The notes beneath the pieces are model-generated. The model had not been told where the DNA came from and searched no databases. It saw only the letters and a list, made by a program, of their open reading frames with translations. Shown here piece by piece: positions 1 to 16,041 of a DNA stretch of 34,434 nt. The stretch lies in the NCBI RefSeq assembly GCF_003334385.1, contig NZ_QOWN01000046.1; one strand, given 5' to 3'. A program made the position numbers and the translations under genes. Numbering within the stretch: position 1 is the first letter of the stretch; each line of letters opens with the position of its first letter. Source of the DNA: Escherichia coli (GTDB lineage Bacteria > Pseudomonadota > Gammaproteobacteria > Enterobacterales > Enterobacteriaceae).

Positions 1-1060
1 GAGGAGTGGCAGATGGCCACGGGATAGGGCTTCCCACCGGGTAGGATTCAAAGCCAACCCACACACCGGATTGGCACGAAAGTATTGCCCCTTTACTGTC
101 GCGGCCTACAAGTCCGTCCGGTGAGCAGGAAGTACCTGCGGTGGCTGTTTTTTCCAGCTGTAAATACTCACCTGTGGAAAGACGACCGTCAGACCGGATC
201 GTTCCACCGCTGACTTTGCCCCCTTTGATTTCACCATCGGTGGTGATCCCTTTGTTATTGACGGCGCGTATCCACTGGCTGTCAGTCATGGTGAAACCGC
301 CTCCGTGCGTCGTGTTCATCCACCCCTTGTTGTTTCTGGTGATAAGCCAGCCGTCTTCGCTGGTTATATCGCCTTTCACCGTGGCTTTCTGACCATTGAG
401 GTTACCGGCGTTATTGATGTCATTTCCGCCCATGTTGATGGCGGTGTGCATCTGGTTCAGCTCTGGTCTCCCCGGGACCTGAAAACGATACAACCTGTCG
501 CTTTCCTGCAGATCATCACCCGTCATGACGACGGCAATGTGACCTGCCGAACAGGTGAGTCCGTAATCCCCCGGTTTGTCTGTCCAGGCGCCGAATGCGC
601 CGGTTGCTGTTCCGTTTTTACCAATATAACCACCCAGCCCGGGAAGCTGTCCTGCCACACTGCGCAGACCATCTTCTTTGATATTCTGCCCCCCTGTTGA
701 GCAGGTCAGGGCTTCAAGACGTCCTGTAGTCTGGTTACGGCGGATACCCGTGATATAACTCTGCCCAAACGGAGAACGATTAAATCCCTGTTTCAGGTAT
801 CCCTTGCGAATCAAATCATCGGCTGTAAAGTTTGCCGGAAGGCTGCCGTTGTGCAGAGTGGCATTGTTATCGGCAATGTAATTTCTGGCTGCGGTATTGT
901 AGGCATCTGCATGAGAAGCAGCACTCTGGTAAAGCTGTTCATTCAGCCAGTTTTCTATTTCGGAATAAATCAGCGGCGTGGCGATACCAATCACTATCAG
1001 TCCCGCCAGTATTTCAAGCAGAATAAAACCTTTGTCGTCATCGTGTCTGAACTTTTTCAC
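1..1060 (-). CDS. pilV: PilV, type IV pilus minor pilin/adhesin; partial, C-terminal shufflon-variable end runs off the left edge
   Basis: Minus-strand frame open from the window edge to a GTG at about 1060 preceded by GGAGAT; N-terminus KKFRHDDDKG/FILLEILAGLIVIG is a prepilin-like leader plus hydrophobic helix; GTG overlaps the pilU stop (GTGA). Four listed plus-strand ORFs here are antisense to it. Confidence 0.75.
   Translation of the reverse strand, partial: MKKFRHDDDKGFILLEILAGLIVIGIATPLIYSEIENWLNEQLYQSAASHADAYNTAARNYIADNNATLHNGSLPANFTADDLIRKGYLKQGFNRSPFGQSYITGIRRNQTTGRLEALTCSTGGQNIKEDGLRSVAGQLPGLGGYIGKNGTATGAFGAWTDKPGDYGLTCSAGHIAVVMTGDDLQESDRLYRFQVPGRPELNQMHTAINMGGNDINNAGNLNGQKATVKGDITSEDGWLITRNNKGWMNTTHGGGFTMTDSQWIRAVNNKGITTDGEIKGGKVSGGTIRSDGRLSTGEYLQLEKTATAGTSCSPDGLVGRDSKGAILSCQSGVWVGFESYPVGSPIPWPSATP
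59..77 (-). repeat. Shufflon 19-bp recombination site (Rci target-like) inside the pilV 3' region
   Basis: Minus strand reads GTGCCAATCCGGTGTGTGG, matching my recollection of the R64 shufflon repeat consensus GTGCCAATCCGGTNNGTGG; it sits where the constant part of pilV would meet the variable segment. Confidence 0.6.
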
Positions 1061-1764
1061 GTGAATATCTCCGAAGTGCGGAAAACGGAATCAGGGAGGA
1101 GGGTTAGTGCATACAGTGATGCGCAGAGAAACGGGGCGAACGGCAGTGCCTGCTGACGTCTGCGACGGCAGAAGAGGAGGATAAACAGAAATGCCCCGGA
1201 AGCTGCGGCGGTGATTAGCAGCGGCGTGTGTTGTGGCTGTGTCCACATTGCAATTCCTGCTATCAGGAATACATCACCAAGGCCGAGTGCTTCTGTTCCT
1301 TTTGCCGTTATGAAAAACTGCCGTAGCAGGTATGTCATGCCGAACCAGAGTGATGCGTTGAGGAGGCTGTATGTGAGCTCCTCCAGGCTGTACCTGAACG
1401 CTGCCCCCAGAACAATCAGTGAAAGCGTGAATATCCGGGGAAGCCGACAGACGGCGATGTCCGTCAGCGTCATTACAGTTAATAATCCCGTCAGAATGGA
1501 AAGGAATAACAGCCCCGTGGCTTCAACACCATATGCGCCGTTGAGGCTGACACTCACTATGGCCAGAAGGCAACACACGTACACCACCGGCCTGGGCGGC
1601 CGGGTGTCGTGTACTGCTGACAGGTAGAGAGCGGCGGTGCTGTATGCAAGATAAAGAATAACCGCCAGGATGATGATTATTATTGTCATGCTCAGTAATG
1701 CGCTCACCGTCACCTCGTATTTATTAATATTGTCTGAAATACCGGTTGTGGATTTTTCGGGCAT
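1057..1764 (-). CDS. pilU: Prepilin peptidase PilU (start may be an internal Met near 1689)
   Basis: 235-aa polytopic membrane protein in the prepilin-peptidase position of the operon; overlaps pilT and pilV. Confidence 0.75.
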   Translation of the reverse strand: MPEKSTTGISDNINKYEVTVSALLSMTIIIIILAVILYLAYSTAALYLSAVHDTRPPRPVVYVCCLLAIVSVSLNGAYGVEATGLLFLSILTGLLTVMTLTDIAVCRLPRIFTLSLIVLGAAFRYSLEELTYSLLNASLWFGMTYLLRQFFITAKGTEALGLGDVFLIAGIAMWTQPQHTPLLITAAASGAFLFILLFCRRRRQQALPFAPFLCASLYALTLLPDSVFRTSEIFT

Positions 1765-2206
1765 ATATCATGCGCCGGGCTGTGTTATTTTTGCTGAAAC
1801 CGGCGTTATAGCTGCCCAGACATTCCCAGTTAACGCCGCAGCGTTGAAAATGGCGGGCCAGTATCCAGGCCCCGGTCTGAATATTCAGGCAGGGATTATT
1901 AAGCAGGTCATTTTTGTCTTTAATGACTCCAAGCTTTTTCAGCTCAGGAATATGCACTGAATTAATCTGCATAATCCCGTAATCCGTACTGATGATTTTT
2001 CCGGATTTGTTTTTATTGTGATTTATCGCAGTGGCGACCAGACTGCTTTCCTGCTGTGCAATGGTTTTAAGAAGATCAGGCGCAATCTGGTAGCGTTTTC
2101 CGGCCTGAATAAAGCAACTGTCCAGTAATGTGTTTGTGGCGACAGCCTCAGCGGGAAGGGCGAAAAATAACGGACAAATCACGGCAGAAAAAAATAACCA
2201 CTTCAT
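1724..2206 (-). CDS. pilT: PilT-like lytic transglycosylase (SLT domain)
   Basis: 160 aa with signal peptide (MKWLFFSAVICPLFFALPAEA); size and operon position match the R64-type thin-pilus PilT as I recall it. Confidence 0.7.
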   Translation of the reverse strand: MKWLFFSAVICPLFFALPAEAVATNTLLDSCFIQAGKRYQIAPDLLKTIAQQESSLVATAINHNKNKSGKIISTDYGIMQINSVHIPELKKLGVIKDKNDLLNNPCLNIQTGAWILARHFQRCGVNWECLGSYNAGFSKNNTARRMIYARKIHNRYFRQY

Positions 2207-2253
2207 GCGGATACACTCCGGAAAAGCGCCCCGGAGGGCGCTGTGTCAGGATA

Positions 2254-2790
2254 TTAACTGCTGGTTTCGAGCGTGATATCGTTTGTGGCGGCAGAGCATA
2301 CAGTTACCGGATCCACACTGGCAGGTGTCTGGCCTTTGATTTTTGTGAACATGGATGAACTGCGCAGACTGTTAATCAGCTCAACACAGTTTTCTTTCGG
2401 TACGGCTTTACTGGTTATGGTATAACCGTATTTATTACTTGTTGCTGCAATGGTGACATCGCCTCCCCATGCATTTTTGGCCTTGTTACTTCCGGCGATC
2501 ATATCAGCCGGCAGGGAACCGCTTTCTGTCAGGGTTTTGATATAATCTGTGCCGGTATATCTGCCCTGGAACTTGTACTGCTTCATTTTTGTTGCAATAG
2601 TCTGCAGGTTTTTCAGTTCACGCTGGTTATCACTGGATGACATTGTGCTGGACATCTGACTCATTGCGAGAGCTACCACAATACCGATGATAATCAGTGC
2701 ACCGGCAATTTCCAGTAATGTTAAACCTTTATCCTCCTCTTTCTCTTTTTTTAAAGCAAAATAAGAATAAAGACATGATCTGAAGTTCAT
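2254..2790 (-). CDS. pilS: Type IVb prepilin (major pilin) PilS
   Basis: 178 aa; charged leader followed by KG/LTLLEIAGALIIIGIVVALA, a type IV prepilin cleavage motif and hydrophobic N-terminal helix. Confidence 0.8.
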   Translation of the reverse strand: MNFRSCLYSYFALKKEKEEDKGLTLLEIAGALIIIGIVVALAMSQMSSTMSSSDNQRELKNLQTIATKMKQYKFQGRYTGTDYIKTLTESGSLPADMIAGSNKAKNAWGGDVTIAATSNKYGYTITSKAVPKENCVELINSLRSSSMFTKIKGQTPASVDPVTVCSAATNDITLETSS

Positions 2791-2837
2791 ATATCACTCC
2801 TAGTGTTATGGGGATCAGAAATATTCTGTATGCGGGA

Positions 2838-4004
2838 TTATTGTTTCAGCATGTCGCTGATACTGTAGATGGCAGATATCATGTTAAGAATAAAAAAGAA
2901 GACAAAACCTCCTGATATACCGGTAATAATTAATCCAATTCGTTTTACCCGTTTTTTTGCTTCCTCCAGCCACTGATCGGCATAGAGTGCCATGGTTGCC
3001 ACACTGTCCTCCCTTTCGGAGTTCAGGAGCAGTTTATTGATGCATATTCTGGACGGAAAATCATAACCGGAATTTCGCATTGCTGTGGCCAGATTCTGAC
3101 CGGATAATACATGTTTTCGTATTGCCTGAATTCTCTCCTTTAACCATTTATTCTTTTCTGCACCTTTTTCCATTCGGAGCAGCGCCTGCGAAAGAGGAAT
3201 ATTAATCTGCAGCATGGATGAAATACTGAACAGATAATTCACCCCGTGTAAGGTCTGATACAGTGACCAGGGGGGAGCCTTGTCCAGCATCCTCCGGCCG
3301 GGGCCGGTATACCGGCTGAATGAAAAACGGATCAGAAGCGTCAGGGCGAAAATGGTCCCACAGAGCCAGAATCCGTACCCGATGAAAAATTCCGACATGC
3401 CGGCAAGCAATTTCATCTGGAATGACCATTTATCTTCTGAAGCAAACGCACTGACGATGGGGATGATACGGGTATGGGCGTTGTACATATTCACCACACA
3501 GAGCGAAAGCAGCAGAAGGGGGTAGAGGCAGACGGCAATGAGGCTGGATGTCATTTCCCGCCGGGCTTTAACGGTTCTGGCCACCTGGAAAAGGGCGTCG
3601 GCAATATTTCCGCGCTCTTCCCCGTTTCTGATTAACGTGGCTTCCTCCGGTGGCACCCAGGTTAACAGGGCACCGGATAACATGCCGCTGGCTTTGATGG
3701 AATCGATGCATTCTTTTGCCAGAAAATACATGCCGGATGTGCCTTTCTTTTCACCAAAATCGGTTTCGATCTCGCAGAGAAATTCGAGTGCACGCAGGGA
3801 CGGCGTTCCGTCACGTATCATGCCGCCCAGGGCTTCGTAGAACTCCACCCGGTTCAGGGCAAAGGTTTTTCTGGCTATCCAGACAGTCAGTGCTGTCAGC
3901 TCAATGTCGGTGTTGTTGAGTTTTTCCAGAAATCTCATGTCAGTGCAGCAGCGTATAGCTGTCCTCGTCGATGGGAGAGATGTAATGGGCCGCCAGCGGA
4001 TCAA
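2838..4004 (-). CDS. pilR: PilR, GspF/PilC-family inner-membrane platform protein (probable true start about 3938, just after the pilQ stop)
   Basis: Polytopic membrane protein following the ATPase gene; the internal Met (MRFLEK...) gives about 366 aa and abuts the pilQ stop. Confidence 0.75.
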   Translation of the reverse strand: MIRWRPITSLPSTRTAIRCCTDMRFLEKLNNTDIELTALTVWIARKTFALNRVEFYEALGGMIRDGTPSLRALEFLCEIETDFGEKKGTSGMYFLAKECIDSIKASGMLSGALLTWVPPEEATLIRNGEERGNIADALFQVARTVKARREMTSSLIAVCLYPLLLLSLCVVNMYNAHTRIIPIVSAFASEDKWSFQMKLLAGMSEFFIGYGFWLCGTIFALTLLIRFSFSRYTGPGRRMLDKAPPWSLYQTLHGVNYLFSISSMLQINIPLSQALLRMEKGAEKNKWLKERIQAIRKHVLSGQNLATAMRNSGYDFPSRICINKLLLNSEREDSVATMALYADQWLEEAKKRVKRIGLIITGISGGFVFFFILNMISAIYSISDMLKQ

Positions 4005-5448
4005 CCTGTCCGCTGTTGATTTTTCCCAGCAGATGCTGATTTCGTGTCATGCCGCCCAGCTCCCGGTGCCAGTATGTTCTGGCCTCAATACGCCCCTTTT
4101 CCCGGTACAACTGGAAAAAACGGGCATCCGGGGAGATGACTTCTGCGATCACCGTTCGTCCTGTCACGCCACGCCAGCAGTGCGGGCAGCCTTCATGATT
4201 TCGCAGATATACCTGGTCCGGGTTGCAGACGCTTTCCACCAGGCGCCGTTCATCATCCGTGCGCTCGGTCGCCACCTCATGCCAGGGGCGACGGCAGTGC
4301 GGACATATCAGCTGAACCAGACGCTGGCTCAGCAGGCCAATGAACAGTTGCGGGTCGGCAATCATCCTGGCCTGCACCCCCTCCATCTCAAGACGTTCGA
4401 GGATGTTAATCGGGTCGTTCGCATGGATGGTGGTCAGCATCAGATGGCCGGTCATGGCGGCTTTTATTGCCGTAATGGCGGAATCGTGGTCGCGGATTTC
4501 ACCGTTCAGGATCCCGTCGGGGTCAAGACGCAGTGCCGATTTGATGGAGTCCACCCAGCCCTGCGCGGTATCCATGACGGCGGTCTGAATGGCACCGGGA
4601 ATACGCCCTTCCGGCGGGGATTCGATGGTGAACAGCCTGCGACGGGGAAGAAGAATACCGCCGGTGTTGTTGAAGCCGTACTGTTCAAGGTACGCCGCAG
4701 AGGCGGTTCTCAGCGTGGTGGATTTTCCTGAGCCGGTGGGGCCTGAGAGCGTGATAATGCCTTCAGGGCGCTGCAGAATGCGGCGAAGAGTGCGCTCCTG
4801 GTCAGGGTGATAGCCCAGCATACTGAAGGTCGGGATTTGCTGACTGTCATCCTTGATCAGACGGAGCACAGCATAGAGGCCGCCCACACAGGGGTAGTGG
4901 GAGTAGCGTGCACCAAACAGACCGGCCAGTTTCAGATACTGCTCTGAAAGACGTGCATCCTGAGGCACCCCGGGATCAAACTGTGTGCCTTTGATAACAT
5001 CGGTCATGCCGGAATAGGTGGCCCCCAGTAATTCGAGGCCTTCTTCTTTCCGGAGGATATCGAGCACTTCCAGTTCGCCGTGAACCCGGGCTTCCACATA
5101 GGTGAAGTCCGTGTTGTCTCGTCCCGGGGTCATATGAAGGTCTGAGGCACCAAGAGAGGCAGAATGGCGGATATAGCCGAGCATTTTCTGCTGTACCGGG
5201 TTAATGACGCTTTCATCACCGGCGGTTGTGGTGTCCTGTCTGAGGCGGGCTATCACATCCAGGGTGGTGAACTCAAAGTCTCCCACACGCCCCTGATGAC
5301 GTGCGCGCAGGCGGGTCAGATATTCCTGGACGGCACGCAGATGTTTTTTTCCCTCCACGACCCTGACCCGCAGATGACCGGTTTTATCTGTGTCGATAGC
5401 CACATAATCCAGAATGTCATCCGGTGGCAGGTCTGCAGACTCCAACAT
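3940..5448 (-). CDS. pilQ: PilQ, type IV pilus/type II secretion-family assembly ATPase
   Basis: 502 aa with Walker A GPTGSGKST and a C-terminal tetracysteine motif (CPHC...CPHC) typical of GspE/PilB ATPases. Confidence 0.9.
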   Translation of the reverse strand: MLESADLPPDDILDYVAIDTDKTGHLRVRVVEGKKHLRAVQEYLTRLRARHQGRVGDFEFTTLDVIARLRQDTTTAGDESVINPVQQKMLGYIRHSASLGASDLHMTPGRDNTDFTYVEARVHGELEVLDILRKEEGLELLGATYSGMTDVIKGTQFDPGVPQDARLSEQYLKLAGLFGARYSHYPCVGGLYAVLRLIKDDSQQIPTFSMLGYHPDQERTLRRILQRPEGIITLSGPTGSGKSTTLRTASAAYLEQYGFNNTGGILLPRRRLFTIESPPEGRIPGAIQTAVMDTAQGWVDSIKSALRLDPDGILNGEIRDHDSAITAIKAAMTGHLMLTTIHANDPINILERLEMEGVQARMIADPQLFIGLLSQRLVQLICPHCRRPWHEVATERTDDERRLVESVCNPDQVYLRNHEGCPHCWRGVTGRTVIAEVISPDARFFQLYREKGRIEARTYWHRELGGMTRNQHLLGKINSGQVDPLAAHYISPIDEDSYTLLH

Positions 5449-5544
5449 AAGGCCTCCTTACGGGCAGCGGTGCCCGGAAAATATGTTTTCTGTTATTAAG
5501 CGAGGGAAATAATCAGTTCTTCTGCGGAGAGAATCTGGACATTT

Positions 5545-6141
5545 TCAGCACAGGCTTAACAGTGTAAAAATGATTACGCCTCCAAAGGCGAATAACAGGG
5601 GAATGTTTTTCTCCGGCTGTGTTGATCTCAGCGTTAATACCGGTGTGGCGAGAGCGTAAAAAATAATACCTGCGGTATAAATAAAATAAGGTGTGATGCC
5701 GGACAGATTACATATACTGGCGAATATCATAAGAATGACGGCAACTACCGATAAAATAATGGAAGTATTCTTCCATTCACCAGATGGTGTAAGTGAAATG
5801 ATATCGCCATCCTGTTTATAGTTCGTGTTCAGCTTCAGGAAATGACGGATATCTTTCAGCGTGTTCAGTTTCTGCTGGATCTCTTCCACAAGTTCCTGTC
5901 TGTCGGTTTTTTCACGGAGCAGCTGGAATTTTGTCTCCCTCAGTACAGATATAATACGGTCCACCTGGCCGGGGGAGGGATAGTAATGATGTTCGAGCAT
6001 CCACCGGACATCGGCGATTAACCGGTCAGTTACCGGTGTATTACCGTTGTTAATGAGAGGTGTTTCGTGCATCCACTGAAATATGCGGTAGATATGTTGC
6101 TTAACAAAAATAAAATCATCGGTGGTTTTATTCTCCAGCAT
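5545..6141 (-). CDS. Hypothetical membrane protein (soluble N-terminal domain plus C-terminal transmembrane helices) embedded in the pil operon
   Basis: 198-aa ORF between pilP and pilQ; noticeably more AT-rich than the flanking pil genes; no family recognised. Confidence 0.5.
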   Translation of the reverse strand: MLENKTTDDFIFVKQHIYRIFQWMHETPLINNGNTPVTDRLIADVRWMLEHHYYPSPGQVDRIISVLRETKFQLLREKTDRQELVEEIQQKLNTLKDIRHFLKLNTNYKQDGDIISLTPSGEWKNTSIILSVVAVILMIFASICNLSGITPYFIYTAGIIFYALATPVLTLRSTQPEKNIPLLFAFGGVIIFTLLSLC

Positions 6142-6236
6142 GAGATATATCCCGTCGAGTGTTAATAATAAAACGTCCCGGGTGTGAGGTGATTTGTGAT
6201 GTATTGTACGGAATATTATTTCTGCACTGTAATCGC

Positions 6237-6791
6237 TTACGCAGGTGATATATCACACCAGAGGAAATACAGCGGAATGAAGCTGTAGAGTGACCAGAAA
6301 AGCCCGACGGGATCTTTTGCCCACAGGCATAAGAATGTCAGTCCGGTGCACCATGCGCCGGCAAGTGCCGCGCATAATTCAGCGCCTCCGGAATTGCCGC
6401 TCTTCATCATATAACAGAGCACGATCAGCAGTGGGATAATGAAGACGAGCGGCAGGACAAAGGATTCGGCTGCGGATATCCATTCCCGGTAACGCCAGCG
6501 GTCGTTTAATCTGTCGGCATCATATTTCAGACAGTTGCTCAGGAACGCCAGATCGTTCATGAGGGGGGCGTCCTGGCCATACTGCGCCGCGAGGCGCATT
6601 CTGGCACCCCACAACCGGGCACTCAGGGCACGGAGTTGTGCCGGGGTGACCTGTTTTCCCCGACAAAGTTGTTCCTGTAATTGTGTTGCCTCGTGGACAA
6701 TATCTGTGTGGTTCACCCCGTATTCTGCAGCGGCTGTTTCCAGGTCACGGATGATCAGGCTGAGCCAGGATATCAGTTCACTGATGTTCAT
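6237..6791 (-). CDS. Hypothetical membrane protein embedded in the pil operon
   Basis: 184-aa ORF with the same architecture as its neighbour (soluble N-terminus, hydrophobic C-terminal segments); no family recognised. Confidence 0.5.
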   Translation of the reverse strand: MNISELISWLSLIIRDLETAAAEYGVNHTDIVHEATQLQEQLCRGKQVTPAQLRALSARLWGARMRLAAQYGQDAPLMNDLAFLSNCLKYDADRLNDRWRYREWISAAESFVLPLVFIIPLLIVLCYMMKSGNSGGAELCAALAGAWCTGLTFLCLWAKDPVGLFWSLYSFIPLYFLWCDISPA

Positions 6792-6839
6792 TGTCGTTCA
6801 TCCTTTTGCACGGACAGCCGCCTGTACTGGCGGCCGGTT

Positions 6840-7292
6840 TCATGGTCGCAGGGTTTTTCTGATGCCGGACTGCTCCAGTACCACACTGTCCGGTGTGATT
6901 TTCTCCACGAGATAAGGGGTTCCGGGGATGTTCTGGCCCGTCTTCACATCGGTGATGTGTCCACCCGAAAGTTCTATCCGGGCGCTCAGCTGAGGCTGTA
7001 CACCAAATATTTCTGTCAGACGGGGGGATGCCGCCGTCGACGGGGCAGTCGGGATGGCGGACGTGCTTTCCTGCGGACGACCGGGCTCTGCGGGAATACC
7101 CTGCTCCAGCATGCGCAGCTCATGACGGATTTTCTCTCTCGCCAGCATGGCTTCATACAGGGCTGTTTCGTCCTGTATCCGCTCAATCTGCAGTTGCCGG
7201 GGACTCTGTTCCTCTGCGTTTCCGGTTGTGGCCATTGCCGTTGCCGGTAACAGCAGCGCTGAAACCAGAAGGGCTTTTGTTTTAGCGTGCAT
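6840..7292 (-). CDS. pilP: PilP-like periplasmic pilus biogenesis protein
   Basis: 150 aa with signal peptide (MHAKTKALLVSALLLPATAMA); operon position and size match R64 PilP as I recall it. Confidence 0.65.
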   Translation of the reverse strand: MHAKTKALLVSALLLPATAMATTGNAEEQSPRQLQIERIQDETALYEAMLAREKIRHELRMLEQGIPAEPGRPQESTSAIPTAPSTAASPRLTEIFGVQPQLSARIELSGGHITDVKTGQNIPGTPYLVEKITPDSVVLEQSGIRKTLRP

Positions 7293-8577
7293 AATATTTA
7301 CCTGTAAATTGATAGTGGAAACGACCGTTCTCCAGTTGTCGTGTGACAGAGATAAAACGGACAGAAGGCGCCTTCAGACGTTCAACCAGCTGGTATGCCG
7401 GGAGTAGCGTCTGTATCTGAAGGTCATACTCTTTCCACGGAGGCTGGATAATATTTCCGTTTTCATCGGTGACACTGTTACTGACCTCCTGCCAGTCCAG
7501 CGTCAGTGGCATTGACTGAGCAAGCGTGGTCAGTTGTTCCTGCAGGACAGAGCTTTCCGGCAGAGCATCAACGTCGACGGGATGTTCAGGCAGGCGGAAG
7601 CTGACTGGCAGGCCAATGCCGCCGGTCTTTCCTTCCGGCATCACAATAAAGGGGCGGGTGCCCGTCATATCACTGATGCGCCGGATGAAGTCAGTCACTG
7701 TCGCGCCAGCTGTATTAGTGTACGAGGCGCGAAGATTGCCGCTGCCGCCGTCAGTTGAACATTCAGCCAGCGAATAACGCCATCCGGCGGCAGACAGTGG
7801 CAGTGACGTCCATATGTCAGCACATCCCTGGATAAATGCGTCGGTTTCGGGGAGTCCGGGCCAGGGGGGACTGATTTGTTCCTCTGTGACCTGTCGGGCA
7901 GCTGCTGCCTGCGCGGCTTGTTCAGTCTTCCACCGTTCATAATACTGCCAGCCGTACCATGCAGCGCCGAGAAGGGCGATGATCAGCGAGACAGTGATGA
8001 ACTGCGCTCCCCGGGATACCGGATTCAGGCGCGCGGCAGCCGGATGTTTACCAGAGCCGGTCAGGGTGGACAGCGGCAGGGCCTGATTCTGATCGCCTGC
8101 TGAAAATGCCACCGGTTCATAGCGTGTCCAGCCCTGCTCCGGTTCGGTGTTGATGGAAAGAAAGGTATCCCGGGCTTCACGGACCTCTTCTCCGCTTCCC
8201 ACTAGGTCACTGACGAGAACACCGTCGACAGCGGAAACAAAGCTGTAGCGCGGTGTTTCTCCGGGTAACGTCAGTTCCGTGATGGCATAGCCGCCCTGTT
8301 CAAGCAGTGGCAGGATCAGCAGGGCGAGGGAGAGGTACTGACGGGGTTTTCCGGGCAGTATGCGGCGACTGGCTGTGGCCACCATGGTGTGGGTGTTGGC
8401 ATCTTCATTACTGAGATACTGACAGGCCAGGAAAAGGTCGGCTTTCTGTGCCCGGGCAAAGTCGCGGGCATGCCGGTACTGTGAGGGCAGTGTTTTCCAT
8501 TCCAGACCGGCCAGAAACACATTGCGCCCTGCCGTCAGCGGAAACATCTGCCGCTCTGTCGGTGAAATATCCGTCAC
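7282..8577 (-). CDS. pilO: PilO-like pilus biogenesis protein
   Basis: 431 aa with a central transmembrane segment; position between pilN and pilP; size matches R64 PilO as recalled. Confidence 0.7.
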   Translation of the reverse strand: MTDISPTERQMFPLTAGRNVFLAGLEWKTLPSQYRHARDFARAQKADLFLACQYLSNEDANTHTMVATASRRILPGKPRQYLSLALLILPLLEQGGYAITELTLPGETPRYSFVSAVDGVLVSDLVGSGEEVREARDTFLSINTEPEQGWTRYEPVAFSAGDQNQALPLSTLTGSGKHPAAARLNPVSRGAQFITVSLIIALLGAAWYGWQYYERWKTEQAAQAAAARQVTEEQISPPWPGLPETDAFIQGCADIWTSLPLSAAGWRYSLAECSTDGGSGNLRASYTNTAGATVTDFIRRISDMTGTRPFIVMPEGKTGGIGLPVSFRLPEHPVDVDALPESSVLQEQLTTLAQSMPLTLDWQEVSNSVTDENGNIIQPPWKEYDLQIQTLLPAYQLVERLKAPSVRFISVTRQLENGRFHYQFTGKYYAR

Positions 8578-8597
8578 GATCGTCCTCCTTGTGCAAA

Positions 8598-10219
8598 TCA
8601 GATGATATTGGGCGTGATCAGCACCACGAGAATGGTGTCGTCGTTTTCACTGTTGATCCCACCGCCAAGACCGAAGAATCCCGGCGTGCCTACACCCTGT
8701 TTTCCGCTGCGACGTCCTGACTGCTGGAAGCCACTGATAATGACCGTCTGCCCGGATTTCAGATCCACGGTCTGATTGATGGTTTTCAGATCCACATTCG
8801 GCAGCTGGGCTTTACTTCCACCGCTCTCATAATTCTCAATAACCGGTTTGTCGGAGAGACTCATGGAATAGAGCAACTGCAGTGTCTGTGAGTCCGGGAG
8901 AATGAACGGCAGAAGGGTCATGTTAAAACCGGTGGTGATGGTGGCCGCATTCAGGGAGGTGGATGAGCCGACATTGGCAGTGGTATCCGTCGTCACACTC
9001 TCTATGTAACTCTGCTGATTGGCGATCTGCATTGGCACCGGCGTCAGGTTTTTGGTGACGGCAGAGTTCTGGGTCACCACACTGACATCCCCCTGGGAAG
9101 ACAATGCTTTCAGGAAGGCTTTTGAACCGGTGAGTTTACCGTCCACAATGGAAACACCACCTGTGATGGCATCACTGGCTGCACTGGTGAATGTGCTGCC
9201 GAGACTCAGTCCCAGCGTTCTGTCGCTGAAGACTGCGTTCCAGTCGATACCGGCCTGCTCATTGCGGGTTTTCCGGATACTCAGAATTTCCACATTCAGC
9301 ACCACCTGACGTTTCATCTCTTCATTGCGTTTTTCAATGAATGCCCGGACCGTTTCCAGAACCTGTGGATTATCTGTGACGGTGATAAAGCCCGTGGACA
9401 TGAACATGCGTCCGATACCCGGGGTCAGCATTGATGTGACCGCATTTTTCACATCCTGATACAGCGCAGACTTCATATCCACTGTGGTGGTCTGGGTATT
9501 GCTGGCATCACCGGAAATGGCATCTGATGCACTGCCTCCTGATGAGCCGTTTGAGGACATGGTGCCGCTGACCACAGTAGCGTTATAGGCCACCTGACTG
9601 TCCATATAGGTGATGGGGAAGGTCTGTGTCTCGAGATAATAGAAGATGATATGCGAGCCGTCATAGCGCCAGGATATACCGAGACGGGAGGAGACCGCAT
9701 TCAGCAGGGTCGTCAGGCCGGAGGCATTCAGTTCAGACAGTGCTGCGGTATTTCCCGGCAGACGGGATGGTGGCGTGTCAGATGCGCCAATGGCGGCAAG
9801 GGGAACCATGCCGCTCGCATCCGGTGGGGGGGTAACGCGCCCTGGATTTGTTGTGTGCTGCCGGTTGTGGATGTATTCAGGTATGCCAGTACATCAGGTG
9901 TGATCCGTACCGGAATATGGCAGCTTTCCGTGATCCGCTGAACCACCTGCTGAAGGGTGATGCTCTGACGGGTATGAATGACAATGGGACAACCGGGAAC
10001 GGTTTTGCCGGTGTTTTTATCCATGACCGGACGGGGATTGATCCATTGTCGTGAGGATTCCTTAACAACCGGCGTCCGGGTTCGCAGATCAGACATCATT
10101 TCCCGTGCCCGTTGTTGTTCCGCAACGGCTTCCTTTCTTGTGCTCTCAAGCTGTCTGTAACTGGCACAGCCCTGTAACAGAGCGGCGGCAATCATAATGG
10201 CAAGAATTTTTTTATTCAT
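8598..10219 (-). pseudogene. pilN: PilN secretin lipoprotein, reading frame interrupted (or sequencing error) at a G7/C7 homopolymer
   Basis: The N-terminal ORF (9728-10219) has a lipoprotein signal (LLQGC) and the C-terminal ORF (8598-9809) is secretin-like; they overlap in different frames. One extra C in the C7 run at about 9826-9832 would fuse them into a roughly 540-aa protein. Confidence 0.7.
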
Positions 10220-10249
10220 GGGAGATCCGTGATTTATTCAGATTCGTGA

Positions 10250-10687
10250 CTAATTCATCCAGAGGATGACGTGATCGGGGATCACTGACGGAAGTGTGAT
10301 GGAAAGCGCTCTGCCGGCAGTGTCCAGCAGTCGGCCGTTTTCCACCCTGCCGAGCAGAGCAGAGTCATTACACTGTTCCCTGAGCGCGGCCATCAGGCCC
10401 GGGGTTTCTGTAGCCCAGACAAAAACACGTTGCTGGCTGATGATATGACTGACGGTATCCGTCCCGGGAATCCCGAGCTGAGTGGATGTCAGCCGCCCTC
10501 CGGCTGTCCGTCGTTCCGGATGCTGATGCAGGTAATCATTGATGGCGTTCATATAACGAATGAACGTTGCTGCCTGTTGTGTATTTTCTGCGGCCTGATG
10601 ACGGTGTTCGCTGCGGGAGAGCTGACTGGTGAACCAGAAATTGCCTGTGGTCGTGATGACCATGATGAACACGATGAACCAGCCCAT
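10250..10687 (-). CDS. pilM: PilM-like pilus biogenesis protein
   Basis: 145 aa with an N-terminal transmembrane helix; position between pilL and pilN. Confidence 0.65.
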   Translation of the reverse strand: MGWFIVFIMVITTTGNFWFTSQLSRSEHRHQAAENTQQAATFIRYMNAINDYLHQHPERRTAGGRLTSTQLGIPGTDTVSHIISQQRVFVWATETPGLMAALREQCNDSALLGRVENGRLLDTAGRALSITLPSVIPDHVILWMN

Positions 10688-10691
10688 AAGG

Positions 10692-11762
10692 TTATTCCTG
10701 TGGACGATCTGTCACCCGCAGCAGACATTGTGCTGTGCTGGTCCGGGCATACAGCGGTTTTTCCACCGGGGTGTAGAGTGCGAAGAGCTGTTCCAGCGCC
10801 TGGCGGAAACTGCCGGTGAAAACCAGAGGGGCATCGATGCTGTAGTTGACAGGTGTTTCCCAGCGTAGCGTCCAGGTGCCGTGGGGGCATTTTTCGGATG
10901 ATGTCCAGCGGGCCAGTCCGTCTTTCAGGGTGGTCCCCTTTTCCATTTTCCACTGCCGTGGCGGTATGACCTTCTGCGGTGGTGGCACTACCGGTTTCGT
11001 GGCCACCGGGGCTGGCGTGGTTGTTCTGCTCTCTGGTGTTCCGGATGTCCCGGTGGTGGTCTGAGCCCGGGAAACGCTGACGGCAGGTGTCACTGGTGTC
11101 GGGCCTGCCGGCGTTGCGGTGCTGCCCCTGAACGGATTACGCGGTGTATCAGCAGCTTTCTGTGAACCCTGCGGTGCCGTGACGTCGACCGGCGGTGTTG
11201 CAGAGGTCGTGACAGTCAGTATTTTCCTGTTCCAGTCCATATGTCCGTAAAGCTGCTGGCCGGCCAGCAGCGCATTCAGTGCCCGGTGCCACTGGTCATT
11301 AACGGACCAGACGGGGAGGCGTTTGTTCAGTGCCGGTATGGCAGCGTTCTGTTGCCGGAACTGCCAGCCGGGTGGCAGCAACGGGCGTATCCAGTCACTG
11401 ACGGAGCGCTGACGTGCCTCACGTAAATAAACGACGGATGACTGACCGGGTTTACCGGTCATAACCAGTGCGGGCAGCTGTGTGGCCTGAAGGAGCGGGC
11501 GGGGAGGCAGTGCGGTACTCTGGCTGCTGACTGCGGTTGTGGGCGTCGCTGTTGTTGTCGGGCGGGGCGGCGTCACAGGGCGGGTCACCGGTGGCGGAAG
11601 CAGACGTTTTTGCGTATGGGCGATAATGGCAGCGCTTTCGCGAATTTGTCCGTCGACGAACACCAGAGCCGGAGGCGTGGTGTCAGGAACAGGCGTGGCA
11701 TTAAAGGCCGTACAGCCGCTGAGTAATGACGGCAGAAGGAGTGTAAGTGATTTCTTTTTCAT
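10692..11762 (-). CDS. pilL: PilL lipoprotein, first gene of the pil operon in this window
   Basis: 356 aa; lipoprotein signal LLPSLLSGCTAF followed by a Pro/Thr-rich linker. Confidence 0.7.
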   Translation of the reverse strand: MKKKSLTLLLPSLLSGCTAFNATPVPDTTPPALVFVDGQIRESAAIIAHTQKRLLPPPVTRPVTPPRPTTTATPTTAVSSQSTALPPRPLLQATQLPALVMTGKPGQSSVVYLREARQRSVSDWIRPLLPPGWQFRQQNAAIPALNKRLPVWSVNDQWHRALNALLAGQQLYGHMDWNRKILTVTTSATPPVDVTAPQGSQKAADTPRNPFRGSTATPAGPTPVTPAVSVSRAQTTTGTSGTPESRTTTPAPVATKPVVPPPQKVIPPRQWKMEKGTTLKDGLARWTSSEKCPHGTWTLRWETPVNYSIDAPLVFTGSFRQALEQLFALYTPVEKPLYARTSTAQCLLRVTDRPQE

Positions 11763-11863
11763 AGAATAAATCCGGTATGTATCGGGTTACGGTATAAGAC
11801 AGGTGGCTGGTAACAGGTCTTCAGATAAATATAATATCATCAGGATATTGATGATGAACATTC

Positions 11864-12304
11864 ATGTTCGGGGTGATTATGAAAACTAAAACATTCCGGT
11901 TCCGGAAATATAAAAAGAAAAACGTTCTGCTGCAAATAATAGTTTCCAGGAAACAAGTGATATTGTTACGCAATATTATGACGGACTCTTTATTGTTTTG
12001 CTCGATAGGTTTTGTGTTTATGAATATGTGTGATTCAAAATATACGTTGATTTCTGGTGAGGGTGGTTTACGTGCTGATTGTGCCGATTATTTATTCTTT
12101 GCCGTATATGCAATTGCGTTGCTAATGATAATTTTATGGATGACAGCTTCAGTTATTTATTCTATTGAAGAATATACGAGTCAGGAAAAATACGGTAAAA
12201 GTAAAGTCTATAGCTACTTCTGGTTTTTTATCTGGTTTTTTGTTTTTAACTGTGCTGTTTATTCTTCTCTGAAGGCAATAAATATAAAAGATATAATCAG
12301 CTAA
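11864..12304 (+). CDS. Hypothetical small membrane protein (AT-rich islet)
   Basis: 146-aa ORF with hydrophobic segments in a low-GC region; convergent with the next ORF. Confidence 0.35.
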   Translation: MFGVIMKTKTFRFRKYKKKNVLLQIIVSRKQVILLRNIMTDSLLFCSIGFVFMNMCDSKYTLISGEGGLRADCADYLFFAVYAIALLMIILWMTASVIYSIEEYTSQEKYGKSKVYSYFWFFIWFFVFNCAVYSSLKAINIKDIIS

Positions 12305-13184
12305 TGGCAGCAGAGGGATTCACGATAAAACCAATGACGTAACCTGTTCCCGAGCAATAAAGGACTGTTGCCGGGGATGTTTTTCGTGTATCCCATATCT
12401 TTGAATCTGTATCAGATGGCGTGTGTTCAATGACCGATAAACTGGCCGGAATGGTCGTGTTAAAAAAAATACTTAACGCGCCTGTAAATAAAGCAGCGGG
12501 AAGAGAAATGCTGGAATGATATATCCATGTGGAGAGTATCAGTGCCAGAATAGCATTTCCTGTATTTATATAATAAAACCAGTCGTTATGGCGCAGATAC
12601 CGGGTAACGGAGAGCCCCCTGGCGGACACGCCATCCGGGAAATGCAGCGCCAGAAGTAGGAGATAAATAACTGCTATTTCAGCCAGTGTAACAGGCAGCA
12701 TAATGGAAAGACGTGACAGGAATGACATCAGCATGTCACTTATGACAGGATTAAGTCGTGTTGAAGATAATTCGTAAATGCCGGTTGTAAAACAGAACAT
12801 ATAACCCAGTCCGGCATAAGCAATAATGGAAACCGGCGTCAGTTTGTTTGATTTGTATGTTTTATACGTTCTCGTTGCTTCTTTAATGGTTAAAATTGTC
12901 AGCAGGGATGTGAGAATCATAACGGGTGGTATATATATGCAGATATATACCTGCAAAGGGTACTCAGTATCGTATACCCGGGTTGTTAATATAACGGACA
13001 GACTCAATAAGGATATATTTCCGAAATGAAACCAGCGATACTGTTGAAGATACTGGAAAACAGTGATGCCTGAAGAAAATGTCCATTTGCCGCGAGCATA
13101 AATAACAACCCAGAATAAAGAACTAATGATACATATCATCAGTATGCCGGGTAATATTGCAAAAATAAATGATGATGTGCTCAT
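12297..13184 (-). CDS. Hypothetical polytopic membrane protein (AT-rich islet)
   Basis: 295-aa ORF with multiple predicted transmembrane helices; low GC relative to the neighbouring pil and yqiK genes. Confidence 0.45.
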   Translation of the reverse strand: MSTSSFIFAILPGILMICIISSLFWVVIYARGKWTFSSGITVFQYLQQYRWFHFGNISLLSLSVILTTRVYDTEYPLQVYICIYIPPVMILTSLLTILTIKEATRTYKTYKSNKLTPVSIIAYAGLGYMFCFTTGIYELSSTRLNPVISDMLMSFLSRLSIMLPVTLAEIAVIYLLLLALHFPDGVSARGLSVTRYLRHNDWFYYINTGNAILALILSTWIYHSSISLPAALFTGALSIFFNTTIPASLSVIEHTPSDTDSKIWDTRKTSPATVLYCSGTGYVIGFIVNPSAAIS

Positions 13185-13376
13185 TATTAAATCTCCATCA
13201 GCATGGTGATGCTTAAATTTTTACGGTTGTGAGGTGCGTAATAAATATCATGTGTAGTTGTGAATAATAGCGTCAGCAACATATATAAAAATAATCTGCA
13301 TTCCTGAAAAATATCGTGGTTGTGAAATATTTAATTTTTACCCCCTTTTATGGGGGATGAAAAGCAGGCTGTCAGG

Positions 13377-13694
13377 CTATAACTGAACGCGGTTTCTGGA
13401 TTTTGGTGCTAATGTCACATCTTTCCATTCACAGCTGCTTCCGGGGATACGCTCTTTGCGTCGTATTATACGGGAGTTCTGACACACAATAATTAAGCCA
13501 TTGTCTGCCGTCTGAAATGGCATTATAGCGATGTTTATATCTTCTGTTGCAGGAATATAACTGACTTTCTTTTCACATGTATTGGTGTATATGACAACTC
13601 TGAATTTTTCTGCGGACATTTTCAATCCTCTTTTAAACCAGAATATCCCGTGAGGGCATTCTTTGTGAAAAAGATGCCGGAAAAATTCCGGCAC
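13377..13694 (-). CDS. Hypothetical protein immediately downstream of the flotillin gene (true start possibly the internal Met MSAEKF)
   Basis: ORF begins 6 nt after the yqiK-like stop on the same strand, consistent with co-transcription. Confidence 0.35.
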   Translation of the reverse strand: MPEFFRHLFHKECPHGIFWFKRGLKMSAEKFRVVIYTNTCEKKVSYIPATEDINIAIMPFQTADNGLIIVCQNSRIIRRKERIPGSSCEWKDVTLAPKSRNRVQL

Positions 13695-13699
13695 GGGGA

Positions 13700-15394
13700 T
13701 TAAACCTGTTGTGGTTCTGAGTTATCCGGAGCGGTTACCGGTTCGCTGACATCCGGAACCTTTTCCGGGGCAGGCATGACCAGTGGACGTGTCAGGGCTG
13801 TAAGTCCTTCACCGGATAAACCCACCTCTTTCAGCAGGGAGTCGATGAGCGGAGCCTGTGTACGGTAAGCCAGAGCGGCGGTTACTGCCTGTTCAGCGAG
13901 ATTTCCGCCACTTATGTCGGTTGTTGCTGTTTTACCGCGGGTAACACCGCCATTCAGACCATCCACCTGAATGATTTTAATACCGTCAATGGATTTCATT
14001 GGTTCTGTGGACTTCTCTATGACGGCAGGTAATGCATCCAGCAGGGCAAGACGGAAGCGGAGGCTGGTCTGCTCATCCGAAAGCACGTTAATGGCATCGT
14101 TCAGTGCGCGCTGTGCTTCTGCTTCTGCCAGACCTTTCTGACGGGTGGCCTCCGCCAGTTCAATAATTGCTGCTGCCTGGAGTTCGGCTGCTTCTTTTTC
14201 AGCCTGTGCGCAAACCGTCAGTTCAACCGCTTTCGTTTCAGCTTCCTGAGCAGCAGCAATCAGGGCAACCTGTTTGGTACGGTCGGCCTCCGCAGTCTGG
14301 CGGGTGGTTTCCACATCCTGCTGGGCCTGTACGGCCTCAGCCAGTGCTTTACTTGCCCGGGCTTCTGCCTGTGACTGCTCTTCCGATTTTGCCGCCACGG
14401 CAATGGCTCTGGCCTGGCTGGCGATTTCGGTTGCCTGCTGTTGCTCAATTTCCCGTATGGCCACTTCCCGTTCGGCTTCGACCTGGCGGGTACGCACTAT
14501 CTGCTGTCGTTCGATTTCGGCTTCCTCTATCTTACGTTCAGCCAGAATTCGCGCGGATTCTGCTTCACGACGTCGTTCAGCTTCAATAGCAGCAATACTG
14601 GCACTCTGCTCTGCCGTACGGGTTTTTACCCGTTGTTGTTGCTCCAGAGTCATGAAGGCTTCCTGCTGTTCAATCTCCAGACGTCGGGAGAGTGCATCCC
14701 GGTTTTTTTCCCTGATGGCCACTTCAACATCCTGCTCAACTTCGTTGCGTTCGCGGCGACGACGTTCTGTTTCCTGGGTCAGAAGGGTCAGGCCTTCAGC
14801 ATCAAAGGCATTGTCAGGATTAAAATGTACCCGTGCAGTCTGGTTGAAACTTGTCAGCGACACACTTTCAAGCTCCAGACCGTTTTTGGATAAGTCTTCC
14901 GCAACGGTGTTCTGCACACCCTGAACAAAGTTCTCGCGGGCATCCTGTAAATCCTGCATGCTCATTCTGGCCGCCGTGGCCCGTAGGGCATCAACAAATT
15001 TATCCTCGACCAGACTACGCAGATCTTCAGGTGTGAGCGTGCGTTGTCCCAGCGTCTGGGCTGCAGTGGATATTCCTTCGGCTGATGGTTTTACCCGAAG
15101 AAAAAAGGCAACGGCAACATCAACACGCATGCGGTCGCGGGTTATGAGACTTTCAGCCGCTGCACGACTGACTTCCAGCTTCAGGGTGTTCATGTTGACG
15201 GGAATTGTTTCGTGAAAAATAGGCATAACAATTGCACCGCCACTCATTACCACTTTTTGGCCTCCCAGACCTGTGCGGACAAAGGCCTGCTCTGCCGATG
15301 CCCGGCGGTACAGGCGGGCAAATATCAGCCCGATAACGAACAGGGTGAGGACCAGCGCTATAACGGTAAACAACCATCCCGGAAGATTAAACAT
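13700..15394 (-). CDS. yqiK: Flotillin-like SPFH/band-7 inner-membrane protein (YqiK-like)
   Basis: 564 aa; N-terminal transmembrane helix, SPFH-like domain, long Ala/Glu/Gln/Arg-rich coiled-coil region; matches E. coli YqiK (about 553 aa) in architecture. Confidence 0.8.
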   Translation of the reverse strand: MFNLPGWLFTVIALVLTLFVIGLIFARLYRRASAEQAFVRTGLGGQKVVMSGGAIVMPIFHETIPVNMNTLKLEVSRAAAESLITRDRMRVDVAVAFFLRVKPSAEGISTAAQTLGQRTLTPEDLRSLVEDKFVDALRATAARMSMQDLQDARENFVQGVQNTVAEDLSKNGLELESVSLTSFNQTARVHFNPDNAFDAEGLTLLTQETERRRRERNEVEQDVEVAIREKNRDALSRRLEIEQQEAFMTLEQQQRVKTRTAEQSASIAAIEAERRREAESARILAERKIEEAEIERQQIVRTRQVEAEREVAIREIEQQQATEIASQARAIAVAAKSEEQSQAEARASKALAEAVQAQQDVETTRQTAEADRTKQVALIAAAQEAETKAVELTVCAQAEKEAAELQAAAIIELAEATRQKGLAEAEAQRALNDAINVLSDEQTSLRFRLALLDALPAVIEKSTEPMKSIDGIKIIQVDGLNGGVTRGKTATTDISGGNLAEQAVTAALAYRTQAPLIDSLLKEVGLSGEGLTALTRPLVMPAPEKVPDVSEPVTAPDNSEPQQV

Positions 15395-15420
15395 AGTGAG
15401 AACCTCTGTATATGTCGGGA

Positions 15421-16041
15421 TTAAAGAACATCCGGCCAGGGATTCAGTTCGCCCAGCCAGCAGGAACCGGAAAGACGGCAGACAATAATCACTTTGTCTC
15501 CTCGTCTGAATTCTTTCCCGGCCTCCGGCTCCAGCAACAGGTAATGAACCTGCCCGAAGCGGTCTGTGAAGCGACCTTCACAGGGGGAACCCGCCACTGC
15601 GTGATAACCGGTGATGGTGGCCATACAGCCGATGAATGCCTCCTCGGTGAGCGCCGTTGTTTCATCACGGGGTAACCAGGGGGCAATCAGTCTGCCGGTG
15701 CGGTGTACGAGAGGACATGTCAGCAGCAGGCAAAGTGGTGTAAGGAGAATGTTCGGGGCAGGAGCCTGCAGCAGATGAATAATAAGACCCTGCAGGAGAA
15801 TGCCGGATATACCAAAAAAACCTGCCAGCATACAGAGGACGATCAGCAGGGGGATCCGTCCGATGTTCAGCCAGTCCAGCGCCTCTCCTGTCAGACCCTC
15901 CGGTAAATCAGGTGTATCCATAGCTGAAGAGAGGGAGTGTCCGCAGAGCAGGGCGATAAGTTCAGCGATACCAGTAAGCAGAACAAAAGTCAGGGCTGCC
16001 AGATAGGGTGCGTTATACGCGGTAAGTAACGTCAGTGTCAT
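15421..16041 (-). CDS. yqiJ: NfeD-like inner-membrane protein (YqiJ-like), partner of the flotillin
   Basis: 206-aa membrane protein directly upstream of the yqiK-like gene with a 27-bp gap; size matches YqiJ (about 209 aa). Confidence 0.7.
   Translation of the reverse strand: MTLTLLTAYNAPYLAALTFVLLTGIAELIALLCGHSLSSAMDTPDLPEGLTGEALDWLNIGRIPLLIVLCMLAGFFGISGILLQGLIIHLLQAPAPNILLTPLCLLLTCPLVHRTGRLIAPWLPRDETTALTEEAFIGCMATITGYHAVAGSPCEGRFTDRFGQVHYLLLEPEAGKEFRRGDKVIIVCRLSGSCWLGELNPWPDVL

Follow-up and report, generated by a model that had tools for sequence, protein, structure and literature searches.

Two membrane-protein genes between pilP and pilQ of an IncK2/Z plasmid and the apparent accessory cassette to which they belong

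The pilP-pilQ interval and its two membrane proteins

The DNA analyzed here (the window) is a 34,434-nucleotide stretch of Escherichia coli contig NZ_QOWN01000046.1 (RefSeq assembly GCF_003334385.1) and belongs to an IncK2/Z, MPF_I conjugative plasmid. It is 100% identical to NZ_CP132729.1 over positions 5400-7300 and 99.4% identical over positions 1-15302. The thin-pilus genes run along the minus strand in the order pilL, pilM, pilN, pilO, pilP, ORF184, ORF198, pilQ, and then pilR to pilU, with products of 356 (PilL), 145 (PilM), 431 (PilO), 150 (PilP), and 502 (PilQ) amino acids. An earlier note on this DNA had drawn attention to the two open reading frames (ORFs) of 184 and 198 codons that lie between pilP and pilQ on the same strand with short gaps. 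We confirmed this arrangement: both start with ATG, and the gaps measure 48 nucleotides between pilP and ORF184, 95 between ORF184 and ORF198, and 96 between ORF198 and pilQ. Both are labeled "hypothetical protein" by RefSeq in NZ_CP132729.1. ORF184 is hereafter called gene A, ORF198 gene B, and an antisense third gene found in related loci gene X. Homologous pairs with 34-37% identity to A and B lie at traU-trbC in other plasmids, and the ratios of non-synonymous to synonymous substitution rates (dN/dS) are below 1, which shows that A and B are real genes and not chance ORFs.

The two proteins share an architecture. Kyte-Doolittle plots placed hydrophobic segments at residues 104-133 and 139-158 of A and at residues 122-154, 153-171, and 178-198 of B. 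For both proteins, AlphaFold2 predicted about 100-120 hydrophilic N-terminal residues arranged as four helices, with a predicted local distance difference test score (pLDDT) of about 80-90, followed by three long hydrophobic C-terminal helices at pLDDT 50-70. The N-terminal domain covers about residues 1-100 of A and 1-110 of B. The soluble N-terminal domain and C-terminal membrane helices that the earlier note had read from the letters alone are thus borne out by hydropathy and modeling, and the two proteins also prove to be paralogues, as described below. Conserved features are a C-terminal motif of A, LWAKDPVGLFWSLYSFIPLY, which is almost invariant in its family, and an N-terminal core of B, YP-P..V......LR.EKFR.VRE........IQ..I..LK. 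In A, the segment RWRYREW stands ahead of the first membrane helix; the positive-inside rule therefore predicts an N-in topology, and the N-terminal domains of both proteins should be cytoplasmic. We regard this genetic and structural description of A and B as very probably correct.

Neither A nor B had a significant match in Pfam, NCBIfam, PADLOC, PHROG, or the PDB, and the same was true of the toxin-antitoxin models of Pfam and NCBIfam and the defense models of PADLOC-DB 2.0, the latter compared with A and B from both the window and L002. Sequence-profile searches of the PDB returned nothing below E 0.8, the PHROGs gave E values of at least 0.12, and the hits of profile scans to PspB (E 0.14) and RseC (E 0.15) fell short of significance. 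When both structure models were searched against AFDB50 with Foldseek, they retrieved solely uncharacterized Enterobacterales proteins of the A and B families. The A family comprises 34 clusters among 5.8 billion proteins, with named sources that are all Enterobacterales, and the B family 42 representatives among 1.84 billion proteins.

Plain BLASTP found no similarity between A and B. Profile-profile comparison aligned the two families at an hhalign probability of 90.5% (E 1.4e-6, 101 columns) with the entire N-terminal domain in register, YPSPGQV of B standing opposite VTPAQL of A. The hidden Markov models (HMMs) of A and B also hit members of the other family, and each structure model retrieved the other family's members in Foldseek. 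A and B are thus distant paralogues, and because plain BLASTP detects nothing, their duplication is old. One I-type plasmid (L018, positions 6977-8426) carries two tandem B-family genes of 199 and 272 amino acids after an antisense X, and the family has therefore been duplicated more than once.

The earlier note had also called the 198-codon gene more AT-rich than its surroundings. The GC content of ORF198 is indeed 0.43, as against 0.576 for pilP and 0.577 for pilQ, but ORF184 (0.54) is not AT-rich, and pilS (0.436) and pilT (0.447) equal ORF198 in this respect, so that base composition alone is a weak sign of foreign origin. Directly 3' of the pilP stop codon lies a GC-rich hairpin, followed by the AAGGA ribosome-binding site of gene A (Table 1). 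Since it has no T-run, this hairpin is not a typical terminator; it may be an mRNA stabilizer or an attenuator. All terminator-like sites that a scan detected on the operon strand fall inside genes; one, at 6287..6268, precedes the stop codon of A by 31 nucleotides, and the gaps toward pilP and pilQ have none. Because these gaps hold no such site, A and B are likely co-transcribed with the pil genes by read-through.

Table 1. Features of the pilP-pilQ interval, in window coordinates
Feature	Positions	Strand	Basis
pilP, 150 amino acids, upstream neighbor	6840..7292	-	ORF list; PilP annotation in the 100%-identical NZ_CP132729.1
GC-rich hairpin, cassette leader	6815..6836	-	RNA fold of -19 kcal/mol, z-score -2.67; conserved across sites
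Gene A (ORF184), 184 amino acids, predicted four-helix N-terminal domain and three membrane helices	6237..6791	-	ORF list, hydropathy, AlphaFold2
A-B spacer, 95 nucleotides; slot of X in three-gene loci	6142..6236	-	tblastn and HMM scans
Gene B (ORF198), 198 amino acids, predicted four-helix N-terminal domain and three membrane helices	5545..6141	-	ORF list, hydropathy, AlphaFold2
B-pilQ trailer, with the ribosome-binding site of pilQ, TAAGGAGG, at its end	5449..5544	-	Sequence
Segment absent from the closest cassette-less IncK2/Z plasmid, NZ_CP013024.1	5490..6791	-	Junction alignments
pilQ, ATPase of the secretion/pilus family, downstream neighbor	3940..5448	-	ORF list; annotation in NZ_CP132729.1

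Distribution and history of the A/X/B cassette

Adjacent and co-oriented copies of A and B, located within a conjugation-machinery operon, were found in the window and in loci L002, L003, L008, L009-L013, L019, L022, L027, and L028. The copies in the window have E values of 9e-84 (A) and 7.5e-100 (B) against the family HMMs. In L003, L008, L009-L013, L019, L027, and L028, tblastn and HMM scans located X between A and B, so that the full order is A, antisense X, B. The same scans found no X in the window or in L002, and the window thus carries a reduced, X-less two-gene form, like that of L002. Several I-type loci have the divergent X-B pair alone, and X is frameshifted in L003 and L011. The product of X, 200-270 amino acids long, begins with three membrane helices and has a conserved domain at its C-terminal end. 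It had no significant match among Pfam, NCBIfam, PADLOC, PHROG, and PDB profiles; relatives of X, A, and B matched PADLOC either not at all or at E 0.037 at best.

The cassette lies at pilP-pilQ in IncK2/Z plasmids, at pilO-pilP in an integrative and conjugative element (ICE) of an E. coli chromosome (L009), and at traU-trbC in F-type tra operons, which are found on plasmids of Klebsiella and E. coli and on one metagenomic contig. More distant members of the B family stand in I-type tra operons after traR, after traK, or before traH. In every locus with enough flanking sequence, which amounts to about a dozen independent loci, the cassette is inside a machinery operon, and in a plasmid collection 148 of the 150 plasmids with B, 164 of the 165 with A, and 82 of the 85 with X were typed as conjugative. 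Strict peptide patterns found no relatives in IMG/VR viral contigs and recovered a single Klebsiella locus from species-representative genomes, a weak negative given how strict the patterns were. The cassette spans three mechanically different machines, namely the type IVb pilus, the I-type system, and the F-type system, and with its presence in F-type, I-type, and ICE operons it is not pil-specific. The proposal of the earlier note that A and B are unusual pilus accessory factors is therefore contradicted as far as a pil-specific role is concerned. With regard to the other candidate roles it had listed (entry exclusion, immunity, and a defense or toxin module), A and B resembled none of the defense, toxin-antitoxin, and exclusion proteins with which they were compared. 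Taken together, A, X, and B make up an unnamed three-family cassette that rides in F-type, I-type, and thin-pilus operons.

Literature searches by protein accession, by the traU-trbC position, and by F-like accessory genes found no paper on A, B, or X. The I-complex plasmid analyzed by transposon sequencing, pMS7163B, has an empty pilP-pilQ site, and in the Klebsiella transcriptome plasmid pBIC1a traU is directly followed by trbC. Both are without the cassette, and thus no published phenotype applies to it.

Comparison of pilP-pilQ junctions indicates how the cassette came and went. In R64 (NC_005014.1) the two genes are 10 bp apart, with neither hairpin leader nor trailer, so that the earlier note was right that pilQ directly follows pilP there, and the pair is extra relative to R64. 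Among IncB/O/K/Z plasmids the junction occurs in three states: with the cassette (111 records), with a RelE/ParE pair, or "empty", with 84 or 102 bp between the two genes. The hairpin leader is conserved in all three, and the empty sites keep it after pilP together with part of the trailer ahead of pilQ. Their break points differ: in NZ_CP013024.1 about 6792 meets 5489, and in NZ_AP022263.1 about 6813 meets 5519. Because leader and trailer are retained and the end points are not the same, the simplest reading is that of two independent deletions from a cassette-bearing ancestor, and within IncB/O/K/Z the cassette looks older than its absence. The later acquisition suggested in the earlier note consequently holds only relative to IncI1/R64 and, it appears, not within IncB/O/K/Z. 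In the IncK2/Z plasmid NZ_CP075854.1 (L004, positions 1940-2719), the slot holds a RelE/ParE-type toxin gene and a small upstream partner on the opposite strand, adjoining a 72-amino-acid N-terminal remnant of A; in this lineage, addiction cargo appears to have displaced the cassette.

Sister plasmids without the cassette keep all the rest of the pil operon, and this speaks against A or B being required for thin-pilus biogenesis. As the earlier note had supposed, the pair behaves as accessory cargo, and because it has been lost from otherwise intact related operons, we infer that it is a dispensable and often lost accessory and no component of the machine that assembles the pilus.

The cassette comes with neither a transposase nor an integrase. 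The ICE copy in L009 has the same leader and trailer as the window, together with a degenerate pilQ start, and is flanked by a 173-bp direct duplication that takes in the 3' end of pilO and the 5' end of pilP (positions 8503-8675 and 10699-10871). In the E. coli F-type locus L003, a 136-bp duplication of the traU 3' end (7575-7710 and 9458-9592) flanks the cassette in the same manner. These duplications suggest that single-crossover or unequal recombination, and not transposition, brought the cassette in. Since it has no mobility gene of its own, the cassette seems to pass from one transfer operon to another through recombination and not as an autonomous element. In L009, the duplication leaves a truncated 34-codon pilP fragment upstream, and a separate 21-bp tandem duplication at about 8715-8757 takes in the start codon ATG of gene A together with its ribosome-binding site (two copies of AAAGGATGAACGACAATGAAC).

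One account of A and B would make them the plasmid's own PilJ and PilK, relocated from upstream of pilL to the pilP-pilQ junction. At 198 amino acids, the product of ORF198 is near R64 PilK (196) in length, and pilJ and pilK are not present upstream of pilL in the window, as the earlier note had remarked; only its inclusion of pilI among the missing genes was mistaken, since a PilI homologue with 32% identity to R64 PilI lies at about 13422-13607 and is annotated as PilI in NZ_CP132729.1. However, with the R64 sequences taken from NC_005014.1, BLASTP gave E values of at least 1.7 for PilK and above 4 for PilJ, and hhalign probabilities were 0.2% (B family) and 1.5% (A family) for PilK and 0.2% (B family) and 0.1% (A family) for PilJ, so that the result which the earlier note had named as its refutation, PilK/PilJ orthology, was not obtained. 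The layout of PilK is moreover the reverse of that of A and B, its membrane helices being N-terminal and its soluble domain C-terminal. F-type tra operons, to which no thin pilus belongs, contain the pair as well, and a weak resemblance to PilK is confined to X, which the window does not carry. Cassette-less IncK2/Z and IncI-gamma/K1 plasmids likewise lack pilJ and pilK, and we accordingly rejected A and B as a stand-in for a missing PilK as well. An identity with PilJ and PilK is so improbable that we discarded it.

The resemblance of X to R64 PilK consists of the same layout, with N-terminal membrane helices and a C-terminal domain, and of an hhalign probability of 39-47% (E 2-3e-4) over the region SHL...RKT.L.E, as compared with at most 2.4% for 12 control proteins. 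The X genes used were those of L009 (9257-10078, minus strand), L008 (4270-4944, minus strand), and L028 (5001-5642, plus strand), and the PilK gene that of L014 (20693-21283, minus strand). This is only suggestive of X being a PilK homologue. In R64, pilK is reportedly needed for thin-pilus biogenesis. The 111-amino-acid "pilK" of pMS7163B was considered too and rejected, being unrelated to R64 PilK and absent from the window. It is the name given there to a soluble gene that other IncB/O/K/Z plasmids carry in the pilI-pilL interval; in the window, that interval (11864-13184) contains two AT-rich (GC 0.32-0.44) ORFs for polytopic membrane proteins, one of 146 amino acids on the plus strand and one of 295 on the minus strand. 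The pilI-pilL interval is thus a second variable slot of the pil operon.

Two further observations concern the surrounding operon. pilN (8598-10219, minus strand) is split into ORFs of 163 and 403 amino acids at a run of seven C residues (9826-9832), where NZ_CP132729.1 has five and an intact gene of 539 amino acids; the split may reflect an error of sequencing, a slippage switch, or a pseudogene. The pil strand also carries, immediately upstream of pilI (13700-16041), a flotillin-family gene (564 amino acids) and an adjoining OB-fold (NfeD-like) gene, a membrane-microdomain pair located beside the transfer genes.

Selection and possible functions of A and B

The two genes differ in the selection they appear to experience. 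dN/dS for B is 0.20-0.30, a range that includes the comparison of two X-less IncK2/Z lineages and can be set beside 0.24-0.36 for pilP and pilO and 0.16 for pilQ. B is thus under purifying selection, and because the low ratio holds between those two lineages, it is kept even without X. A has an overall dN/dS of 0.40-0.59, which divides into 0.38-0.40 for the membrane part and 0.8-0.95 for the N-terminal domain, although the counts are small (13 non-synonymous versus 4 synonymous). The membrane part of A is thus constrained and its soluble domain near-unconstrained or diversifying, and a fast-changing N-terminal domain would fit a specificity or arms-race surface. Cut-off and frameshifted copies of the cassette genes are common in databases.

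The best overall explanation we can offer, a tentative one, is that A and B are an X-less accessory cassette encoding an inner-membrane complex of the protective or exclusion type; the protective function itself is the more doubtful part. Under this explanation, A and B would be produced by read-through with pilL-pilV, only when the cell builds its transfer apparatus, would insert N-in into the inner membrane, and, because they are paralogues, would probably assemble into a hetero-oligomer. The basic conserved face of helices 3-4 of B and the fast-changing bundle of A could then engage a cytoplasmic or membrane partner. Such a complex would not aid pilus biogenesis but would shield the piliated, transfer-competent cell, as a barrier or immunity against entry by the pilus route, be it of pilus-specific phage or of redundant DNA. 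We favor a protective role over one in pilus assembly because the cassette occurs with three unrelated machines, is frequently lost, and has a fast-changing A surface. A bolder generalization, which we consider unlikely, is that A/X/B constitutes a hitherto undescribed, portable inner-membrane barrier of pilus-displaying cells, switched on with the transfer operon, that blocks pilus-specific phages or other unwanted DNA or RNA arriving through the pilus and has been carried by recombination among the F-type, I-type, and thin-pilus operons of enterobacterial plasmids of clinical importance.

Several points weigh against a protective complex. The parent plasmid has its own ExcA gene beside traY, and the E. 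coli F-type locus L003 continues into the usual traG region, so that the role of classical exclusion is not obviously vacant and its odds are lowered. The lack of PADLOC or PHROG matches leaves A and B without a link to any known defense or superinfection-exclusion family. Their structure matches are generic helical bundles, neither protein has a recognized enzymatic or binding domain, and the membrane helices were modeled at moderate confidence (the pLDDT of 50-70 given above). The high dN/dS of the N-terminal domain of A could equally reflect relaxed constraint. Finally, a context survey of this small size and a strict-pattern scan could have missed copies outside conjugation operons.

The constant company of transfer genes also lends itself to a different explanation, in which A and B would be non-essential modulators of the transfer machine, similar to TraP or TrbI of F, that tune pilus dynamics, stabilize the membrane platform, or adjust the assembly ATPase, and are kept because they improve mating under some conditions, such as in liquid or in particular hosts. 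The cassette always lies within machinery operons and is co-oriented with them, and in several loci it is just upstream of an ATPase gene or cluster, namely pilQ in the window, traH-I-J in L019, and traT-traU in L024. F tra operons, moreover, hold many small non-essential inner-membrane trb genes. Yet no common partner is apparent among three mechanically different machines, the F-type site traU-trbC is not beside an ATPase gene, and the cassette has been repeatedly lost from otherwise intact operons. No profile similarity was seen to the F-type proteins TraP, TrbA, TrbF, and TrbI, nor to R64 PilI or the I-type TraR, TraS, and TraT (hhalign probability at most 1.6%). In the transposon-sequencing analysis of pMS7163B, the pil genes other than pilT were unnecessary for surface mating. 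On balance, a modulator role strikes us as doubtful.

The behavior of X raises the possibility of a selfish toxin-immunity or addiction unit, in which X, expressed from its own promoter, would harm the membrane and A and B would be its membrane antidotes, leaving the window with orphan immunity genes. In the X-bearing I-type loci, the divergent arrangement of X and B is conserved; in the F-type and ICE loci with all three genes, X occupies the place between A and B; and it is X that has been lost (window, L002) or frameshifted (L003, L011). The pilP-pilQ site, moreover, accepts addiction cargo, as seen with RelE/ParE in another IncK2/Z lineage. Against this, no similarity to toxin-antitoxin or defense models was found, and X, at 200-270 amino acids with a conserved soluble domain, is unlike any small membrane toxin known to us. 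A and B are also intact, and B is under purifying selection, in two X-less IncK2/Z lineages, although an antidote without its toxin would not be expected to persist. We therefore judge a toxin-immunity unit improbable.

Less probable again is that A and B buffer envelope or membrane stress while trans-envelope machines are being built, as housekeeping helpers of the donor with no outside target. Their co-orientation inside machinery operons and independence of machine type would agree with this, restriction to Enterobacterales would fit a host-specific partner, and the flotillin and NfeD-like genes upstream of pilI show that the plasmid has other membrane-organizing cargo. The sole hints of such a function, however, are the non-significant PspB and RseC matches, and the frequent loss of the cassette and the fast-changing soluble domain of A fit a conflict-type function better.

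The cassette is of interest because conjugative plasmids of the IncI complex and IncF rank among the chief vehicles of antibiotic resistance, and the catalog of their transfer operons is generally considered good. Yet the three gene families described here have neither a name nor a Pfam model, and our searches turned up no paper on them, although they are present in about 150 (B), 165 (A), and 85 (X) plasmids. A protective role for piliated donors, for instance against male-specific phages, would matter for plans to deploy such phages against resistance plasmids and would add a type of defense or exclusion coupled to expression of the receptor. A role in tuning the machines would instead point to a need common to F-type, I-type, and type IVb systems. 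On either reading, the cassette is a defined deletion target with clear assays.

Comparison with known transfer-operon genes

In position and product, the cassette resembles the dispensable genes of the F tra operon, which include traP, trbA, trbE, trbF, trbI, and the antisense artA. These too are small membrane-protein genes set among essential transfer genes, co-directional or, as with artA and X, antisense, and the F-type site of the cassette, traU-trbC, lies in that very operon; several small trb genes are annotated in L003. The difference is that the trb genes belong to the backbone of F-like plasmids, whereas A/X/B crosses machine types and is present or absent among close relatives. R64 PilJ and PilK share with A and B the character of small membrane proteins of a thin-pilus operon, but they are encoded upstream of pilL, while A and B lie between pilP and pilQ and occur also in operons without thin pili. 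The RelE/ParE pair of NZ_CP075854.1 is likewise dispensable two-gene cargo of the same pilP-pilQ slot, but its products are soluble and have no sequence relationship to A and B, and its genes lie on the opposite strand.

The exclusion proteins, such as ExcA of IncI plasmids, TraS and TraT of F, TrbK of RP4, and Eex of SXT, are also small, dispensable inner-membrane proteins encoded in transfer operons. They have fast-changing specificity regions, to which the soluble domain of A, with its dN/dS of 0.8-0.95, may be compared. ExcA nevertheless shows no similarity to A or B (hhalign probability at most 0.6% for IncK and R64 ExcA), and its gene lies elsewhere on the parent plasmid, beside traY. 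An exclusion system, furthermore, normally serves one cognate machine, whereas the A/B family is not tied to a single one and, in the window, resides in a pilus operon.

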